DNA of 62,999 bases from the NCBI GenBank assembly GCA_045605805.1, contig JAZUQR010000007.1, forward strand, positions 1 to 62,999, given 5' to 3'. Shown here one piece after another: positions 25,016 to 59,279 of this stretch. The position numbers and the translations under genes are program-made. Source of the stretch: Alphaproteobacteria bacterium (lineage in GTDB: Bacteria > Pseudomonadota > Alphaproteobacteria > CAAHEQ01 > UBA3637). Below the pieces are notes generated by a model. That model saw only the letters and a list, made by a program, of their open reading frames with translations. It was not told where the DNA came from and searched no databases. Position 1 is the first letter of the stretch. Every line of letters starts with the position of its first letter.

Positions 25016-27655
25016 TTAGCCTAACAATTTCAAAATATCTTGAATCTTTATAACACCCTGCTCACTTTCGGCCAAAGATTGACGCTTGTCCGCCACCACT
25101 TGTTCTGGCGCTTTGGACACAAAAGACTCGTTAGATAATTGCGCTTTGGTCCGTTCAATAAAAGCAGTTAAATTAGCTAATTCTTTATTGAGACGTTCTT
25201 TTTCCTTGTCAACATCAATCAATCCCGCAACAGGAATCAATAAAGTCATACCATCAAAAATCTGAGCCACCTCACCGGCAGAACTTTCTTTCACAAAAAC
25301 AATCTCAGCTGTTTTGGATAAAAGTCTTAAAATCCCTTGATTTTCTTCAATGTTTTGTCGTTGAACATCGGTTGCATCTTTGATTTTTAAGGTGATTTTT
25401 GACGAAGCAGGAATGTTCACACTGGAACGCACAGAACGCACCGCAGTGATTAAATTAAAAATCCAATCCTGTTTTTCCGCCACTGCCTTATCTTCAAATG
25501 CATTCAAAGTTGGCCAATTGGCTTCCATAAGCATACCTTCACGATTGGCCGTTTTGCCCCACAGTTCTTCCGAAACATAAGGCATAAAAGGATGAATCAA
25601 CTTTAACATTTCATCAACCACAAAGGCCACTGTGGCCCGAGTTTCACGAATCGCAGCCTCATCTGCTGAGTTAAAGACACTCTTAATGGCTTCCAAATAC
25701 CAATCACAAAAAGTATTCCAAACAAAGTGGTACAACTCATTGCACGCCTCATTAAAGGCATACATATCCATCCACTTGGCAATCAAATCTGCTGTTTCAG
25801 AAATCTTGGTGATAATCCATTTATTCACAGGCAAAGAAATTGTGGCAGGGTTAAAGTCCTCCACCCGTTTGCATTCATTCATCTCACAAAAACGCACAGC
25901 ATTCCAAATTTTGGTGGTAAAGTTGCGATAGGTTTCTACCCGCCCTTCACTCATCAACACACTGCGGCCGGAACCTTCTTGAATCAACAATGAAAAGCGC
26001 AACGCATCGGCCCCATATTTGTTGCACATTTCCAAAGGATCAATTCCGTTACCCTTGGATTTGCTCATCTTCTGGCCTTTTTCATCCCGAACAAGACCGT
26101 GCAAATGAATCTCCTTAAATGGCACTTGCTTCATCGCATACATAGACATCATCATCATTCTGGCCACCCAAAAGAAAATAATATCAAAACCAGTCACCAA
26201 AACGGATGTCGGATAGTATTTTTTCAAATGTTCATCATTTTCATTTGGCCAACCCAATGTTGAAAAAGCCCACAACCCCGAAGAATACCATGTATCCAAA
26301 ACATCTGTATCTTGAACAAGTGGTTCAACTTTACCATAAAAAAGATTGGCCTGTTTTTGGGCTTCTTCTTGTGTTTCTTCACAGAACATATGTCCATCCG
26401 GCCCATACCAAACAGGCACTTGATGACCCCACCATAATTGACGAGAAATACACCATGGCTGAATATTTTCCATCCACGAATAATACATATTTTCCCAAGT
26501 ACTGGGTACAAACTTTGTCGCCCCAGACTTCACAGCATCAATAGCCGCCCCAACCAATTTGGAGGTATCCACAAACCATTGATCAGTCAACCACGGTTCA
26601 ATCACCACATCAGAACGATCGCCATAAGGAATTGTCATGGGATTATCTTCTTCATGGTCATACAACCCCAAAGCCTTGATATCTTCCAACACAAGTGGAC
26701 GAGCCTCCAAAGGTGCCATCCCCCGATATTTTTCCGGCACATTTTCGTTCAACTTTGCCTCTTTTGTCAATAAATTGACCAGTGGTAATTGATGGCGTTT
26801 GCCCACTTCAAAGTCATTAAAATCATGAGCCGGTGTAATTTTCACAGCACCAGTTCCCTTTTCTGGATCAGCATGTTCATCTGTAATCACAGGAATCGGT
26901 TTATTGATAATAGGAATTAAAACATTTTTACCAATAAAGTCCTGATATCTTTCATCTTTATCAGAAACCGCAACGGCCGTATCCCCAAACAAAGTTTCGG
27001 GACGTGTTGTCCCAACCATAATGAATTTGGAAGAATCTCCTTCCAACGGATATTTGAAATACCACATTTTTCCAATGGTTTCTTTTTGAATAACTTCCAA
27101 ATCAGAAATAGCTGTTTGAAACTTCGGATCCCAGTTCACCAAGCGTTTATCACGATAAATCAAACCATCTTTGTACATTTTCACAAACACTTTGCGCACA
27201 GCCGCAGAAAGCCCCTCGTCCATTGTAAAACGTTCTCTGCGCCAATCACATGAACAACCTAAGTGCTTTAACTGATTGACAATTTCACCACCAGACTTGG
27301 TTTTCCACTCCCAAACTTTTTCCAAAAACTTGGCACGACCTAAATCATGACGAGAAATCCCTTCTTTTGCCAACATGCGTTCCACAACCATTTGCGTGGC
27401 AATACCCGCATGGTCAGTTCCGGGTTGCCATAAAACATCAAACCCCTTCATCCGTTTATAACGACATAAAGCATCTTGAATAGAATAGTTCAAAGCATGA
27501 CCAAGATGCAAATTACCAGTCACATTTGGCGGAGGAATAACAACACAAAAAGGAGGTTTTTCAGACTCAGGATGACAATCAAACAAACCTTTGGCTTGCC
27601 ATTTAGCATAGATTTCTGTTTCGGCTGTATTGGGTGTAAATGATTTTTCTAACAT
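25016..27655 (-). CDS. valS: Valine--tRNA ligase
   Basis: PPPNVTGNLHLGH, WCISRQLWWGH, KMSKSKGN, C-terminal coiled coil; start MLEKS at 27655 behind AAGGAG. Confidence 0.98.
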   Translation of the reverse strand: MLEKSFTPNTAETEIYAKWQAKGLFDCHPESEKPPFCVVIPPPNVTGNLHLGHALNYSIQDALCRYKRMKGFDVLWQPGTDHAGIATQMVVERMLAKEGISRHDLGRAKFLEKVWEWKTKSGGEIVNQLKHLGCSCDWRRERFTMDEGLSAAVRKVFVKMYKDGLIYRDKRLVNWDPKFQTAISDLEVIQKETIGKMWYFKYPLEGDSSKFIMVGTTRPETLFGDTAVAVSDKDERYQDFIGKNVLIPIINKPIPVITDEHADPEKGTGAVKITPAHDFNDFEVGKRHQLPLVNLLTKEAKLNENVPEKYRGMAPLEARPLVLEDIKALGLYDHEEDNPMTIPYGDRSDVVIEPWLTDQWFVDTSKLVGAAIDAVKSGATKFVPSTWENMYYSWMENIQPWCISRQLWWGHQVPVWYGPDGHMFCEETQEEAQKQANLFYGKVEPLVQDTDVLDTWYSSGLWAFSTLGWPNENDEHLKKYYPTSVLVTGFDIIFFWVARMMMMSMYAMKQVPFKEIHLHGLVRDEKGQKMSKSKGNGIDPLEMCNKYGADALRFSLLIQEGSGRSVLMSEGRVETYRNFTTKIWNAVRFCEMNECKRVEDFNPATISLPVNKWIITKISETADLIAKWMDMYAFNEACNELYHFVWNTFCDWYLEAIKSVFNSADEAAIRETRATVAFVVDEMLKLIHPFMPYVSEELWGKTANREGMLMEANWPTLNAFEDKAVAEKQDWIFNLITAVRSVRSSVNIPASSKITLKIKDATDVQRQNIEENQGILRLLSKTAEIVFVKESSAGEVAQIFDGMTLLIPVAGLIDVDKEKERLNKELANLTAFIERTKAQLSNESFVSKAPEQVVADKRQSLAESEQGVIKIQDILKLLG

Positions 27656-27724
27656 AGTAAACTCCTTAATGTATAAATTAGAAGTATGATACCGCAAAAA
27701 AACAAAAAGGTCAACCATTATTTG

Positions 27725-46805: not shown

Positions 46806-48572
46806 TTAACGCAACTTGATATGTACCTCTCTCAACTGTTTTTCTGACACTGCCGAGGGGGCATTCATCAACAAATCTTGCGCTTGTTGGTTGAATGGGA
46901 AGGCTATCACTTCACGGATATACTCTTCATTTTCCAACATCATTACAATGCGGTCAAAACCAAAAGCAGCCCCACCATGAGGCGGTGCGCCAAACTTAAA
47001 GGCATTCAACATACCACCAAACTTGGCTTCAACCACTTCTGGTCCATATCCGGCAATTTCAAATGCCTTATACATCACATCCGGTCTGTGGTTCCGAATA
47101 GCACCAGACAACATTTCTAATCCATTTCCAACCATATCAAATTGATAGGCCTTGATTTCCAACGGATTTTTGTTTAACAATGTGTCCAATTCGCCTTGCG
47201 GCATAGAAAATGGATTGTGGCTGAACATCGGTTTGCCGGTTTCCGGATCCATTTCATAGAATGGGAAATCAACTACCCAACAAAAGCGATAAGCATTCTT
47301 TTCATACAACTCCAATTCTTTACCAAGCAAATTGCGCACTTTGCCGGCAAACAAGGCCGCAGCATCACCAGAGCCACAAACAAAGAACACACTGTCCCCT
47401 TGTTCTGTACCAGTCAATTCAAACAATTTGGCCAAACGAGCTTCATCCAATTTTTTTGCAATCGGACCTTTGTTGCCTTCTGCTGTCCGTACAATATAGC
47501 CCAAACCGCCCATATTATTGTCCACAGCAAAGGCATTCATCTTGTCAAACCAACTGCGTGGCCGATCCTCTGTTTTTGGGGCCCGAATAGCACGCACAAA
47601 ACCGCCTTCTGCCACTTTGGAAGCAAAAATACCGAATTCAGAACCTGCAAACACCTCTGACACATCAACAATAGTCAAAGGGTTACGCAAATCTGGCTTA
47701 TCTGTTCCATACTTTAACATAGCTTCATCAAACGGAATGCGTTGAAACGGAGCCGCAGACACAGCAGCATTCGGTGCAAACTCTTTGAAAATAGAACTAA
47801 TCAAGTTCTCGGCTACCTCCAAAATCTCATCTTGTGTCACAAAAGACATTTCCCAGTCAATCTGATAAAACTCACCAGGAGAACGATCTGCACGAGAATC
47901 TTCATCTCTGAAGCAAGGAGCTAATTGGAAATAACGGTCAAACCCAGCCACCATCAGTAATTGCTTAAATTGTTGCGGAGATTGAGGAAGCGCGTAAAAC
48001 TCGCCTTTATGAACACGGCTTGGCACCAAATAATCCCGAGCCCCTTCCGGACTGGAAGAAGTCAAAATAGGCGTCTGAAACTCTGTAAACCCCATATTCC
48101 ACATAGCATCACGCACAAACTTGTTTAAGCGATTACGCAATAAAATATTCGCATGAGGTTTGGCTCTGCGTAAATCCAAAAAGCGATAAGTTAAACGTTG
48201 TTCTTCACTCAATTCAGACGAATCGGCAGTAATTAAAAATGGCAAAACCTGAGCCTCACTTAAAACTTCAACCGCTTGAACCGAAACTTCAATTTCACCT
48301 GTCGGCATTTTAGCATTGATTGTTTCAGGCGTTCTGCTTAAAACTTTTCCTTCAATACGCACTACAGATTCAGGACGAGCTTTTTCCAACACAGAAAAGC
48401 TATCAGACGAAGTGTCCACCACACATTGTGTCACGCCATCATTATCCCTTAAATCAATAAATAATAAGTTGCCGTGATCACGCTTTGTTTGAATCCATCC
48501 GGATAAAACAACAGTTTCACCTGCATTTGAGGAACGCAATTGTCCACAAAGTTTTGTTCTATAATTTTGCAT
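46806..48572 (-). CDS. aspS: Aspartate--tRNA ligase (probably non-discriminating)
   Basis: [53 protein letters not shown]; ATG 48572 lies 9 nt after a GAAAGGTG SD. Confidence 0.98.
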
Positions 48573-48751
48573 TGTAATTTTCACCTTTCATTTTGTTAAG
48601 TGCAAGGGCGAATTTCGTCCGCTGTGCCACCTTGCTTCAGGGTCTGAATAAACCCCCTTAAACACGCTGTAACGGGCGCAACCCGAAGGGTTCTAATAAG
48701 CAAAAAGCCGTTCTTCCCTTATGCTCCCCTGTGTCATCAGGATCATTGCAT
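48573..48751 (-). promoter_or_regulatory. T-box riboswitch, ultrashort Stem I / translational type, Asp (GAC) specifier
   Basis: K-turn Stem I with terminal loop AU-GAC-A, Stem II, IIA/B with CCGUUA, Stem III, antisequestrator GCAAGG-UGGCACA-GCGGA...UUCGC-CCUUGC directly upstream of the aspS SD. Confidence 0.9.
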
Positions 48752-48756
48752 ACACA

Positions 48757-48785
48757 ATTTTACCAAATAAAAACTCAAAAAGCAA
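48757..48785 (-). promoter_or_regulatory. Sigma70 promoter of the T-box/aspS transcript
   Basis: TTGCTT (48780-48785)-17-TAAAAT (48757-48762) with TG extension; predicted +1 at about the first base of Stem I. Confidence 0.7.
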
Positions 48786-48830
48786 TCAAAAACTTATGAC
48801 ATTTACAAAAAAATATGATATAATAACACC

Positions 48831-49814
48831 ATGTTAAAAGAAAAATGTCCTTATTTTAACCAATGTGGCGGATGCGTCTGGCAAGATTTATCCGAGCAAG
48901 AATATATTCAAAAAAAAGAAAACTTTGTCAAAAACGCCTTTCGGGATGTCAATCTGGAAATCAACCTATCCCCCATGATTTTAATCCCAACCGGCACTCG
49001 CAGACGGGCCAGCTTCTCCTTCAACGGCAACCATTTTGGCTTTAATGGGCAAAAAAGCCATCAAATTATTGATATTGCCACCTGCCCGCTTTTAACACCA
49101 ACCATCAATCAAGCCCTTCCTTTCTTGAAAAAGGTGATAGCCCAACTGAAATCAAGCGGAGATGTATTTGTTCTGGCAACAGAAATGGGATTGGATGTTC
49201 ATATCAAAGATAAAAAAGGGTATCCACACCTACAAGAAATTGAATTGCTGAATACCCTCAGCCAATATACGATAATTGCCCGAGTGATGTATAATAACAC
49301 ACCCATCTTCCAGAAAACACCACTCAGCGCAAGTGCTGATGCTTTTATGCAGCCCAGCCTTGAAGGCGAACAAACCCTGATACAACAGGTTTTGGAAAAC
49401 ATTGGACCTGCCAAAACAGCATTGGATTTATTTTGTGGCAAAGGAACATTCACAATTCCATTGCTCAACAAAGGATTAAAAATCAAAGGTTATGATAGTT
49501 CTCCCTCTGTCCTCGCTTTACAAGAAAATGGCGAACAACGAGATTTATTCAGAAACCCGCTTACACCAGAAGAATTTGAAAAAATTGATTTGGTAGTTCT
49601 AGACCCTGCCCGAGCAGGTGCTTTAACCCAAATTGAACAACTGGCTCAAACACAAGTACCTAAAATCATTATGATTTCTTGCAATCCCAAAACAGCCGCC
49701 CGGGATATCAAAATCTTAATAAAAAACGGTTGGAAGATACAAAAAATCACACCAATTGACCAATTTACCTACTCAAACCATATAGAATTGGTCACCATCT
49801 TGAAAAAAGAATAA
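48831..49814 (+). CDS. RNA m5U methyltransferase, RlmD/TrmA family (no TRAM domain)
   Basis: CPYF..CGGC Fe-S motif, F.Q, LDLFCGKG, LDPAR.G, ISCNP.T..RD, DQF..S.H.E. Confidence 0.88.
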   Translation: MLKEKCPYFNQCGGCVWQDLSEQEYIQKKENFVKNAFRDVNLEINLSPMILIPTGTRRRASFSFNGNHFGFNGQKSHQIIDIATCPLLTPTINQALPFLKKVIAQLKSSGDVFVLATEMGLDVHIKDKKGYPHLQEIELLNTLSQYTIIARVMYNNTPIFQKTPLSASADAFMQPSLEGEQTLIQQVLENIGPAKTALDLFCGKGTFTIPLLNKGLKIKGYDSSPSVLALQENGEQRDLFRNPLTPEEFEKIDLVVLDPARAGALTQIEQLAQTQVPKIIMISCNPKTAARDIKILIKNGWKIQKITPIDQFTYSNHIELVTILKKE

Positions 49815-57025: not shown

Positions 57026-57100
57026 GACCCTATCATCTAATGGTTAGGATACGGCCCTCTCAAGGCCGGCATACGGGTTCAAATCCCGTTAGGGTCACCA
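57026..57100 (+). tRNA. tRNA-Glu(CTC)
   Basis: GACCCTA...CGGCC-CTCTCAA-GGCCG...GGTTCAAATCC...TAGGGTCACCA. Confidence 0.96.
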
Positions 57101-57524: not shown

Positions 57525-59279
57525 CTATTTCATTACATAACTGTCCATAAATGCTTTTTTCAGGTTGTTTAGTTCACGGTTGATGGGATATTCAATTTTG
57601 CTAATTTCCTCCAACATTACCCTTACATCTTTCTTATGAGCATATAACCTTTGTCCAATTCCCTGTTCTGCCCATCCGCATATAGCATTTTGATATTGCG
57701 GAGGAATCTTTTTTTCCGTAGCCATTGTTTCAAAAGTGTGCCGAAATGAGTGAAATACTTTTGATGGCTCGCTCATGCCAATCTTATCCAAATATCTTGC
57801 AAACCAATGTTGAACTTGACAATTATACAATCCTCTCTTGATTTTCGCAAAATCAAATAATTTTACCTTATGTTCTCTTCTTTGGTATTCAACATAACGC
57901 AAAAATCCCATATCAATCAACTTTGGATGGATTGGTATTACCCGTTCAGAACCTTTATTTTTTACTGATTTATCGGGAGCATTTGCATTAATACTGATAC
58001 AAGGTATTCCTTTTTCCTGTACAATATCATTGACATCTAATTGACAGATTTCATTCAGGCGGCATCCATGATAAAGAGCTATAATTGGCACCCAAAATTT
58101 ACCTTGGTTATTCCTACAATGTGGGTCAATGTATGTATTGGGATTAAATATTTTATGTAAATCATCGGCTGTAAATGGCTCTCGCAAAATGTGTTTAATT
58201 CTTACAGGACTATCAATGGATGTATTCATACTGTTTGATATAATTTCTTCCTTTTCAGCATATCTCATAAACTCCTTAAACACCGCCAAATATCCTTGAA
58301 TTGTATTCTTTGATAAAACTTTATTTGGGTTATCTGTAAGCAAACTAAAAATATCATCGTTTTCTATTTTTTCATTCCAGCGTTTAGGAACTCGGTGAAT
58401 CAGTTCAGAAAATTGACGACAATCCTGTTTCGTAATATCTTCAAGATATTCCCGTTTCATGAGTAAAAATGCCAACCATATACATTTTTTTAGCTTAGAA
58501 AGTCGTTTATCTGAACTTCCTTTAATGTTTTTTTTCATGAACAAATACCGTTTGAAAAACTTTTCCCAATGGGTAGCAGCCATAGAATGATGAATCCGTT
58601 CATCGGTTTTCATACTATCATAAGTTCGGAGTAAGGTTATAACCTTTGGGTTGGTCGGAGTGTACAGTTTTTCCTCCCTCCCAGCTTGTACAGCTTTCTT
58701 GGCATAGTGGTCCAGTTGGGCAATATGTGTTGAAAACTCCTTTAGCCAGTCATATTTTGCCCCCTTTTCCACAAGTCCTAACTCAATTTCCTTGTTTCTC
58801 AGTTGGTTATAAACGCTTCTTAAAGTGATATTTGCTTTATTTTTATCCACTAATCCCTTCAGATAATTCAGAATCATATCCTGCATCAATTTCCGAATAT
58901 CGGCTTCTTTTTTCCCATTAGGGAATAAAATAATGTCCGCCTCGGTCTTATGGCGAGATTTAATCTCGTCTGTATTGTTTTCCAAGAATTCTTGAATTTG
59001 TTCCAATCTGTGGAGCAATAACTTGTCCACATCAGCTTTATTTAGAATTAATTGTTTTTGTTCATTTACTTTCATAATAATATCCTTAAATATTGTTAAA
59101 AATGCTTGTAAATGAGCAAATTCTACACGCCATTTTTCTATTGCTTCCTGATACACAGAAGTGTTCAGCGAGAACTTAATCTCCGAACATCTGGCAAGGA
59201 CTTTTAGGTAGGATGGAATCCTAATCCTAAAGTAAAAGAGTCGTTGTCTTGCGAAGAGTCCTGGGTAATGGTACGACAT
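57525..59279 (-). CDS. Tyrosine recombinase/integrase with N-terminal DUF6538-like domain
   Basis: N-terminal FYFRIRIP; catalytic HGCRLNE (R), VKN (K), FHSFRH (HxxR), CGW (W), RLY (Y). Confidence 0.92.
   Translation of the reverse strand: MSYHYPGLFARQRLFYFRIRIPSYLKVLARCSEIKFSLNTSVYQEAIEKWRVEFAHLQAFLTIFKDIIMKVNEQKQLILNKADVDKLLLHRLEQIQEFLENNTDEIKSRHKTEADIILFPNGKKEADIRKLMQDMILNYLKGLVDKNKANITLRSVYNQLRNKEIELGLVEKGAKYDWLKEFSTHIAQLDHYAKKAVQAGREEKLYTPTNPKVITLLRTYDSMKTDERIHHSMAATHWEKFFKRYLFMKKNIKGSSDKRLSKLKKCIWLAFLLMKREYLEDITKQDCRQFSELIHRVPKRWNEKIENDDIFSLLTDNPNKVLSKNTIQGYLAVFKEFMRYAEKEEIISNSMNTSIDSPVRIKHILREPFTADDLHKIFNPNTYIDPHCRNNQGKFWVPIIALYHGCRLNEICQLDVNDIVQEKGIPCISINANAPDKSVKNKGSERVIPIHPKLIDMGFLRYVEYQRREHKVKLFDFAKIKRGLYNCQVQHWFARYLDKIGMSEPSKVFHSFRHTFETMATEKKIPPQYQNAICGWAEQGIGQRLYAHKKDVRVMLEEISKIEYPINRELNNLKKAFMDSYVMK

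Follow-up and report, generated by a model that had tools for sequence, protein, structure and literature searches.

The leader of aspS carries a T-box fold

The window analysed here is a stretch of 62,999 nucleotides (nt), positions 1 to 62,999 of contig JAZUQR010000007.1 (assembly GCA_045605805.1), from an alphaproteobacterium. On its minus strand lies aspS, the gene for a bacterial-type aspartate--tRNA ligase (AspRS), and the leader of this gene has the elements of a T-box riboswitch with an ultrashort Stem I. The aspS ATG is at 48572, and the leader ends 23 nt 5' of the gene. The features are listed below, together with the match to R1, a covariance model that was built from 20 leaders.

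48757 to 48765, minus strand: putative extended -10 promoter box TGGTAAAAT (TGnTATAAT in relatives), 6 nt 5' of the first Stem I pair
48596 to 48751, minus strand: whole T-box leader (sensor domain); RF00230 match 48601-48755, R1 match 48595-48751 with 178.1 bits
48722 to 48750, minus strand: ultrashort Stem I, from the Rfam alignment and covariation
48733 to 48735, minus strand: specifier GAC (Asp codon), followed by a conserved purine, A, at 48732; GACA is invariant and GAC is complementary to the GUC anticodon
48686 to 48720, minus strand: Stem II with the purine string GAAGAA and an S-turn-like internal loop, from covariation and the Rfam Stem II alignment
48664 to 48685, minus strand: Stem IIA (CGGG/CCCG), F-box CCGUUAC and IIB pseudoknot (GCG with CGU), from the pairing count
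48657 to 48661, minus strand: possible extra helix, 5' strand UUAAG (weak evidence)
48639 to 48656, minus strand: Stem III, from covariation
48602 to 48635, minus strand: antisequestrator-type helix (GCAAGG/CCUUGC and GCGGA/UUCGC) bearing the T-box bulge, from covariation and folding
48623 to 48629, minus strand: T-box bulge UGGCACA, invariant; its UGGC is complementary to the 3' terminal GCCA of tRNAs that have G73
48596 to 48600, minus strand: possible extra helix, 3' strand CUUAA (weak evidence)
48582 to 48588, minus strand: Shine-Dalgarno (SD) sequence AAAGGUG, 9 nt 5' of the ATG
46806 to 48572, minus strand: aspS, bacterial-type aspartate--tRNA ligase of 588 amino acids (NF001750, TIGR00459, Pfam)

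The aspS product was identified by NF001750 (788.1 bits, cut-off 443) and TIGR00459 (636.2 bits), and Pfam assigns it a tRNA-synt_2 domain, an OB anticodon-binding domain and a GAD domain. A preliminary description, made from the sequence alone, had placed the T-box elements on the minus strand and read them as an ultrashort T-box module order. Reading of the sequence located all of them where they had been placed, and the module architecture was borne out by the RF00230 alignment and by covariation in 20 relatives.

The Rfam T-box model RF00230 aligned end to end (model positions 1-219) to 48601-48755, with 48.8 bits and an E value of 9.3e-10 in 501 bases searched. In the whole genome (1.21 Mb, 31 contigs, 98.9% complete) the leader was the sole RF00230 match (E 5.3e-10). 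Another synthetase gene in the window, valS (25016-27718), lacks a T-box; T-box control in this genome is confined to aspS. A default Rfam scan of the window reported three tRNAs only and no T-box. The single-sequence fold of the leader was no better than that of shuffled sequences (z 0.26), and the minimum-energy fold differed from the T-box fold. Because single-sequence folding energy is uninformative here, support for the fold comes from the family model and from the comparison with relatives.

Stem I consists of a basal helix (UGC/GCA), a kink-turn (K-turn, AAUGAU/GGA), a stem of five pairs (U-G, then CCUG/CAGG) and an apical loop of 6 nt. The GAC at 48735-48733 sits within this loop, AUGACA, which is closed by CCUG/CAGG. 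The K-turn signature was found at the expected place, with UGA of the 5' strand and GGA of the 3' strand aligned to the K-turn positions of RF00230. The distal Stem I platform (AG bulge and distal loop, which contact the tRNA elbow) is absent, and 72 RF00230 positions are replaced by 2 nt. This loss defines the ultrashort subclass and places the leader in it.

Conservation and covariation of the leader

Twenty leaders were aligned with MAFFT, and the proposed T-box structure was counted on this alignment. Its 46 pairs gave 907 cells, 96.5% of which were paired, and 15 of the 46 pairs change on both sides. For four of five measures, none of 500 shuffles reached the observed values, and slid registers fell to 26-52% paired. 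All helices except the invariant Stem IIA (helix 5) vary in sequence yet keep their pairing. The Stem I helices 1 and 2 were 91.7% and 99.0% paired, with four pairs changed on both sides. Values for Stem II (helices 3 and 4) were 95.0% and 91.7%, again with four such pairs. Helix 6, the IIA/B pseudoknot, was paired in 100% of cells, and one of its pairs occurs as G-U, A-U and G-C. In Stem III (helix 8, 92.9% paired) four of seven pairs are changed on both sides. Helices 3-6 and 8 together range from 91.7 to 100% paired and contain eight pairs changed on both sides. The antisequestrator helices 9 and 10 reached 100% and 99.0%, with three pairs changed on both sides.

Conservation extends to the single-stranded parts. 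Invariant positions include the G and A of both K-turn strands (20 leaders), the loop GACA, the Stem II purine string and GGUGGCAC. GAC and UGGC were unchanged in all family leaders inspected (33 of the 34 genomes with a match), while the loop residues 5' of GAC do vary in the family (AU, CC, CU, CA or C). Upstream of Stem I, the alignment of the 20 leaders shows a conservation of at least 90% for A5, A8 and T9 of the promoter box, with the consensus TGnTATAAT. From this conservation we infer that the box serves as the promoter; a simple promoter scan did not have it in its list. In our judgement, the element is a real, conserved T-box.

The possible UUAAG/CUUAA helix was paired in 94.0% of cells, with one-sided changes only. 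In genus g11 of the host family it extends to 9 bp with one U-A to C-G swap, and at most 6 of 1000 shuffles reached 9 bp. In the genus of the window it has 5 bp, which 12-67% of shuffles reached. The helix is in register in all lineages and carries statistical weight only in genus g11. If formed, it could possibly close off a three-way junction together with Stem III and the antisequestrator.

Specificity for tRNA-Asp and the AspRS genes

The genome contains 52 tRNA genes, including tRNA-Asp(GUC), whose gene has G73 and ends in GCCA. Because of this end, UGGC can pair with the acceptor end of the same tRNA whose GUC anticodon is matched by GAC. The preliminary description had proposed that specifier and bulge have switched together to match Asp. 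The invariance of both elements and their fit to this tRNA uphold the proposal, except that UGGC fits tRNA-Asn as well (see below).

The asnS model was searched in five genomes, and in all five it found only AspRS and a lysS-sized paralogue, both below the cut-off, and no asnS. gatB was above the cut-off in the same five of five genomes. The lack of an asnS match together with the presence of gatB makes it very probable that AspRS is non-discriminating and that Asn-tRNA is made via transamidation; by this gene content, tRNA-Asn is probably a substrate of AspRS in addition to tRNA-Asp.

Outside the family, the triplet in the same K-turn register is either GAC or AAC, always combined with UGGC and always in front of an AspRS gene. 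In the sister lineages AAC stands before aspS and, like GAC, is followed by a purine, A. GAC and AAC would thus read exactly the two tRNAs that a non-discriminating AspRS would serve. A further link to AspRS was found in genus g2 of the host family, where in three genomes a T-box with GAC and UGGC precedes an archaeal-type aspartate--tRNA(Asn) ligase of 432 amino acids (NF003483, 453.3 bits, cut-off 353). The bacterial-type aspS of these three genomes lies on another contig and has no T-box. The g2 T-box is a variant without Stem III and with one extra U in the bulge; the loci are L110 317-1615 for the ligase (G082, contig C18) and L106 155-296 for the T-box. That GAC is fixed amid a variable loop, that the T-box is linked to the archaeal-type AspRS in g2 and that GAC or AAC occurs with UGGC outside the family all speak for the loop triplet as a true specifier.

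We considered that the sensor might read tRNA-Asn, or both tRNAs, since a G-U wobble at tRNA position 36 could allow GAC to pair with GUU, and the G73 of either tRNA suits UGGC. The GCCA end of tRNA-Asn(GUU), the lack of an asnS match, the presence of gatB and the occurrence of AAC in the same loop register of sister lineages are in line with this. GAC, however, is a perfect match to tRNA-Asp only, and lineages with an Asn specifier use AAC, suggesting strict reading of the first position. Moreover, according to passages in PMC7778990 and PMC7583486, the Stem II purine string monitors the geometry of the codon-anticodon duplex. Reading of tRNA-Asn is therefore improbable in our judgement, and tRNA-Asp is the preferred ligand.

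Output of the leader

The ATG lies about 30 nt past the 3' helix in an A-rich linker, and 17-24 nt past the model end in 29 family leaders. An AAGG-type SD is found at the same place in these 29 leaders. No terminator-like site was detected in 48300-49000 (shuffle mean 0.6), and none of the 29 leaders has a hairpin with a U-run 3' of the 3' helix. Both results speak against a transcriptional output by intrinsic or Rho-dependent termination, as in class I T-boxes. Both the linker and the start of the coding region are rich in A and C and poor in G. Such a composition would favour Rho under a block of translation, but any such effect would be secondary to translation. We regard a transcriptional output as very improbable, the least probable of the alternatives.

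The isolated antisequestrator domain folded as proposed in 13 of 16 sequences, with -10 to -14.6 kcal/mol. In the leader of the window, GGUGAA at the SD has a possible partner in UUCGCC of the 3' strand; this pairing is not conserved. The only recurring complement of the SD is CCUU of the 3' strand. Three other pairings were tried and rejected, as each holds only in subsets of leaders: that of the SD with the 5' strand of Stem I, that of the start codon with the 5' end of the leader, and that of the 3' strand with GGCGAA, a stretch of early codons.

Based on these sequence data, we estimate the probability at about 80% that the 5' leader of aspS contains a functional T-box riboswitch, one of the reduced type with an ultrashort Stem I, transcribed from the extended -10 promoter. 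What is established here is the fold with its conservation and covariation, its fit to the host tRNA and its association with AspRS genes. The most likely function is translational control by uncharged tRNA-Asp, where we infer both the binding of the tRNA and the translational output. GAC in the apical loop of the mini Stem I would pair with the tRNA-Asp anticodon, GUC. The Stem II purine string and the IIA/B pseudoknot would support the codon-anticodon duplex, as in solved ileS T-boxes, and the UGGC bulge of the 3' helix would pair with the free GCCA end of uncharged tRNA-Asp. Bound in this way, uncharged tRNA would lock the 3' helix and keep the nearby SD open, so that falling tRNA-Asp charging would lead to more AspRS being made.

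Several observations weigh against this assignment. The RF00230 score of 48.8 bits is below the gathering score of 93, a shortfall that results from the 72 distal Stem I model positions replaced by 2 nt. The tRNA-Asn(GUU) gene likewise has G73 and ends in GCCA; UGGC fits tRNA-Asp and tRNA-Asn alike and so is not Asp-specific by itself. When the SD region was tested against each leader with RNAduplex, the best partner differed between genomes (-4 to -10 kcal/mol) and no conserved sequestrator was found. In 16 sequences the antisequestrator had -10 to -14.6 kcal/mol, compared to -1.2 to -6.5 kcal/mol for the 3' strand paired with the SD region, and RNAalifold left the 3' part of the 29 leaders as an open chain. 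The leader might be ON by default, because the sequestrator of the M. tuberculosis ileS RNA is reported in PMC12647780 to be more stable than the antisequestrator, and no such sequestrator was found in the aspS leader. Lastly, 24 sequencing runs, mostly of gut DNA, were consulted as contigs and four of them were compared with the region. A 204-nt contig covering 48531-48731 comes from a run that is presumed to be RNA, and in a metatranscriptome a relative is represented by a contig that spans 48699-48900. The contigs from RNA runs give no usable expression evidence, as contigs can neither show RNA ends nor exclude DNA.

The lack of a terminator and of a conserved or stable sequestrator would also fit a tRNA-binding T-box fold that is conserved but no longer switches, for instance a constitutively open leader kept for mRNA stability or as a tRNA-binding platform. 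Many relatives of the same family indeed manage without the leader, using a plain promoter and an AGGAG-type SD. On the other hand, across three orders the specifier, the bulge with UGGC and the 3' helix either stay invariant or covary. This is hard to explain without sensing of the acceptor end, and the only changes of the specifier are between the two cognate codons. In addition, nearest-neighbour energies are unreliable where a helix has a 7-nt bulge or where folding is co-transcriptional. We therefore hold the loss of switching to be unlikely and retain translational control by uncharged tRNA-Asp. The preliminary description had called the leader an intact uncharged-tRNA sensor. The sensing part of this statement stands; since no conserved sequestrator was found, regulation itself is put forward as likely only.

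In the wider interpretation given further below, where the output works without a dominant sequestrator, two mechanisms are candidates. A helix might close off the discriminator domain as a three-way junction, or the SD might compete directly with the T-box 5' strand, with which it has the AAGG(U) motif in common.

Distribution in the family, order and class

RF00230 identified the leader in 20 of 36 other genomes of the host family (one match spurious, in G021) and in none of 24 other families of the class. The match in G021 (E 0.0023, 23.9 bits) was dropped; its sequence has no T-box features, and R1 gives no match there. With R1, the leader was found in 34 of 80 genomes and 6 of 16 genera of the host family. 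The preliminary description is thereby supported by a model of related aspS leaders, which recovers a conserved and covarying leader. The family represents its whole order, as a sample of the order gave the identical 80 genomes.

Genus g1 (genus of the window): leader in 16 of 20 genomes
Genus g11: leader in 4 of 5 genomes
Genus g14: leader in 4 of 4 genomes
Genus g5: leader in 3 of 3 genomes
Genus g3: leader in 3 of 10 genomes
Genus g2: leader in 3 of 21 genomes
Ten other genera of the family: leader in 0 genomes
One genome each from about 150 other families of the class, RF00230: 2 matches, G185 (E 7e-12) and G156 (E 2.9e-4)
The same class sample, R1: 1 match, G185
150 other genomes across the phylum, RF00230: 0 matches
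41 genomes of the order of G156 (0.5-1.1 Mb), R1: at least 8 matches, in 4 of 6 families

The four misses in genus g1 were genomes in which aspS is cut at a contig end (two) or was not found (two). As these lack an assembled aspS 5' region, the leader is present in 16 of 16 assembled 5' regions of the genus. The count for the order of G156 is a lower bound, with G156 itself lost to the stricter filters, and G185 was the only sampled genome of its order. By these model matches, related leaders occur in two more alphaproteobacterial orders, which gives at least three orders in all. Specifier and modules differ among them.

G372: specifier AAC, without Stem III, before aspS
G368: specifier AAC, before aspS
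G391: specifier AAC, before aspS
G377: specifier GAC, before aspS
G382: specifier GAC, without pseudoknot and Stem III; the gene is aspS2-like by its N-terminus only
G156, G387, G399 and G407: specifier GAC, mini Stem I and T-box helix only, before aspS
G185: specifier AAC

The smallest T-box-like leaders (L105 1719-1817 in G156; L117, L118 and L119; L072 about 1290-1400) consist of a mini Stem I with GAC and a helix with UGGC only. They precede aspS and lack Stem II, pseudoknot and Stem III; in G156 and L072 they follow directly after a tRNA gene. A downstream GGGUGCC (GGUGUC in L072) is complementary to the T-box GGCACC. L072 is labelled Muribaculaceae while its AspRS groups with alphaproteobacterial AspRS, and its contig may be mis-binned. 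In G185 (L104 2-982, minus strand) the gene divergent from the AAC T-box and aspS resembles queA, a queuosine-synthesis gene, by its N-terminus only. Queuosine modifies position 34 of tRNA-Asp and tRNA-Asn; the neighbourhood may be a coincidence. In G030 of genus g11 (L101 1681-2040) a small open reading frame (ORF) with a lipoprotein-like signal (start MKRLLILLLF, cysteine after LSA) lies between the T-box and aspS. Its stop is 2 nt 5' of the aspS ATG, so that the T-box would control both genes.

In family members without a T-box (L037-L048, 230 nt upstream of aspS), aspS has a short leader with a plain promoter and a strong SD of the AGGAG type. Members bearing the T-box have a weaker SD, AAGGA or AAGGU.

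Host and history of the element

The preliminary description had assigned the host to the Alphaproteobacteria, and the data agree with this. About 30 closest AspRS loci are from metagenome-assembled genomes labelled as Alphaproteobacteria, from the guts of ruminants and other animals; one of these is classed at NCBI among the unclassified Alphaproteobacteria. Genome kinship places the host in this class of more than 150 families. The leader is on a 63-kb contig together with rpoD, topA and valS, and TopA is 77-89% identical within the genus, which makes a mis-binned contig unlikely.

A quick AspRS tree was built from the first 470 residues with 56 rows, after partial and duplicate rows had been dropped; row L029 is marked leader-less only because its contig starts at the gene. 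T-box-linked genes were found in basal branches (G185; G156 with L072; genera g5, g11 and g14) and also in a nested, well-supported clade with the genus of the window and part of g3. Leader-less genes fall between the T-box-linked branches, and 3-5 gains or losses are needed. The topology fits an old element with repeated loss. In genus g3, AspRS identity to that of the window is 82-85% in the three T-box genomes and 72-75% in the other seven, whereas TopA identity is 73-74% and 73-76%, respectively. This mismatch hints that leader and aspS were transferred together into part of g3. Loss and transfer are both hints only, neither is regarded as shown, and we draw no firm history from them.

A wider interpretation, which we offer tentatively and regard as possible but doubtful as a whole, is that of an old, mostly vertical lineage of minimal T-boxes for AspRS genes in gut Alphaproteobacteria with reduced genomes. 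The specifier would flip between GAC and AAC because the enzyme serves both tRNAs, and modules would have been shed in branches (Stem III, or Stem II, pseudoknot and Stem III). The output would work without a dominant sequestrator, by a mechanism not yet described for T-boxes.

Comparison with known T-boxes

T-boxes are textbook regulators of Gram-positive bacteria. The actinobacterial ileS T-boxes have the specifier AUC and the bulge UGGU. The aspS leader differs from them by GAC and UGGC, by the gene aspS and by its alphaproteobacterial host, as opposed to Ile specificity, ileS and Actinobacteria. Its ATG is only about 30 nt past the 3' helix, and an extra closing helix is possible. The module order is the same as in the translational ileS T-boxes of Mycobacterium and Nocardia ('class II' of TBDB). 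According to passages of PMC7583486 and PMC12647780, the ileS type and the aspS leader have in common the K-turn, a mini Stem I with an apical specifier followed by a purine, the lack of an elbow platform, a Stem II with S-turn and purine string, the IIA/B pseudoknot, Stem III, a short purine linker, a bulged antisequestrator, the lack of a terminator and an SD downstream. PMC7583486, in the part that deals with Stem II, describes that its S-turn purine string and the pseudoknot hold the codon-anticodon duplex without a Stem I platform.

The class I Asp/Asn T-boxes of Firmicutes (the type of the RF00230 seed) belong to the same family model. In class I, Stem I is long, holds the specifier in an internal loop and has a distal platform, and the leader ends in an intrinsic terminator; the aspS leader lacks all of these. 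For two-codon families such as Asp and Asn, a C-ending specifier is favoured according to a section of the TBDB paper (PMC7778990), and GAC and AAC of the alphaproteobacterial leaders agree with this preference of the class I Asp/Asn T-boxes. T-box control of AspRS genes is known, for example for Clostridium acetobutylicum aspS, as mentioned in PMC2494555. A proteobacterial precedent is provided by the leuA T-boxes of Geobacter and Pelobacter (passages in PMC2494555 and PMC3766115). These are typical T-boxes of a biosynthetic gene in Deltaproteobacteria, in contrast to the reduced T-box of a synthetase gene in Alphaproteobacteria. Besides these leuA cases, the host lists in parts of the same two comparative papers name Firmicutes, Actinobacteria, Chloroflexi and Deinococcus-Thermus. 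According to PMC7778990, the TBDB class II model was applied only to Actinobacteria and to truncated class I hits.

In the full-text literature, with TBDB, the Rfam full alignments and supplementary files not covered, we found no report of an alphaproteobacterial T-box or of an ultrashort T-box for Asp or Asn. The alphaproteobacterial leaders score under the Rfam threshold, and pipelines based on this threshold would miss them. By this measure the host class and, for the reduced architecture, the specificity are new, and the expression platform is at odds with the sequestrator model. The preliminary description had suggested that host and specificity are both new. This is sustained by the literature searched, with the amendment that the leader is no single case, as it extends to at least three orders and includes an AAC specifier.

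The conserved alphaproteobacterial lineage widens the known host range of T-boxes. Structural studies of the ultrashort architecture have dealt with Ile, to which natural counterparts for Asp and Asn are now added. They show specifier switching between two tRNAs served by one non-discriminating synthetase. Natural deletion variants are available that lack Stem III, or Stem II and the pseudoknot. With about 155 nt, the leaders are short and handy for structural work and for engineered tRNA-responsive switches.

Other features of the window and the genome

The neighbour divergent from the leader (48831-49814) has a weak match to a tRNA (uracil-5)-methyltransferase. Further along the window, tRNA-Glu(CUC) at 57026-57100 lies beside an ORF of 584 amino acids (57525-59279) with a phage-integrase domain (E 7.9e-12), and this neighbourhood may be the edge of an integrated element. 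On contig C18 (18961-19190), the adjacent genes for tRNA-Gly(CCC) and tRNA-Leu(UAG) were found by ARAGORN without a CCA end, which the other 50 tRNA genes have. The start of contig C26 (21-575) is occupied by a dense cluster of six tRNA genes (Gly, Arg, His, Gln, Lys, Lys), 555 bases in length. This cluster includes second copies of tRNA-His(GUG), tRNA-Arg(UCU) and tRNA-Lys(UUU), plus one more tRNA-Gly(UCC).

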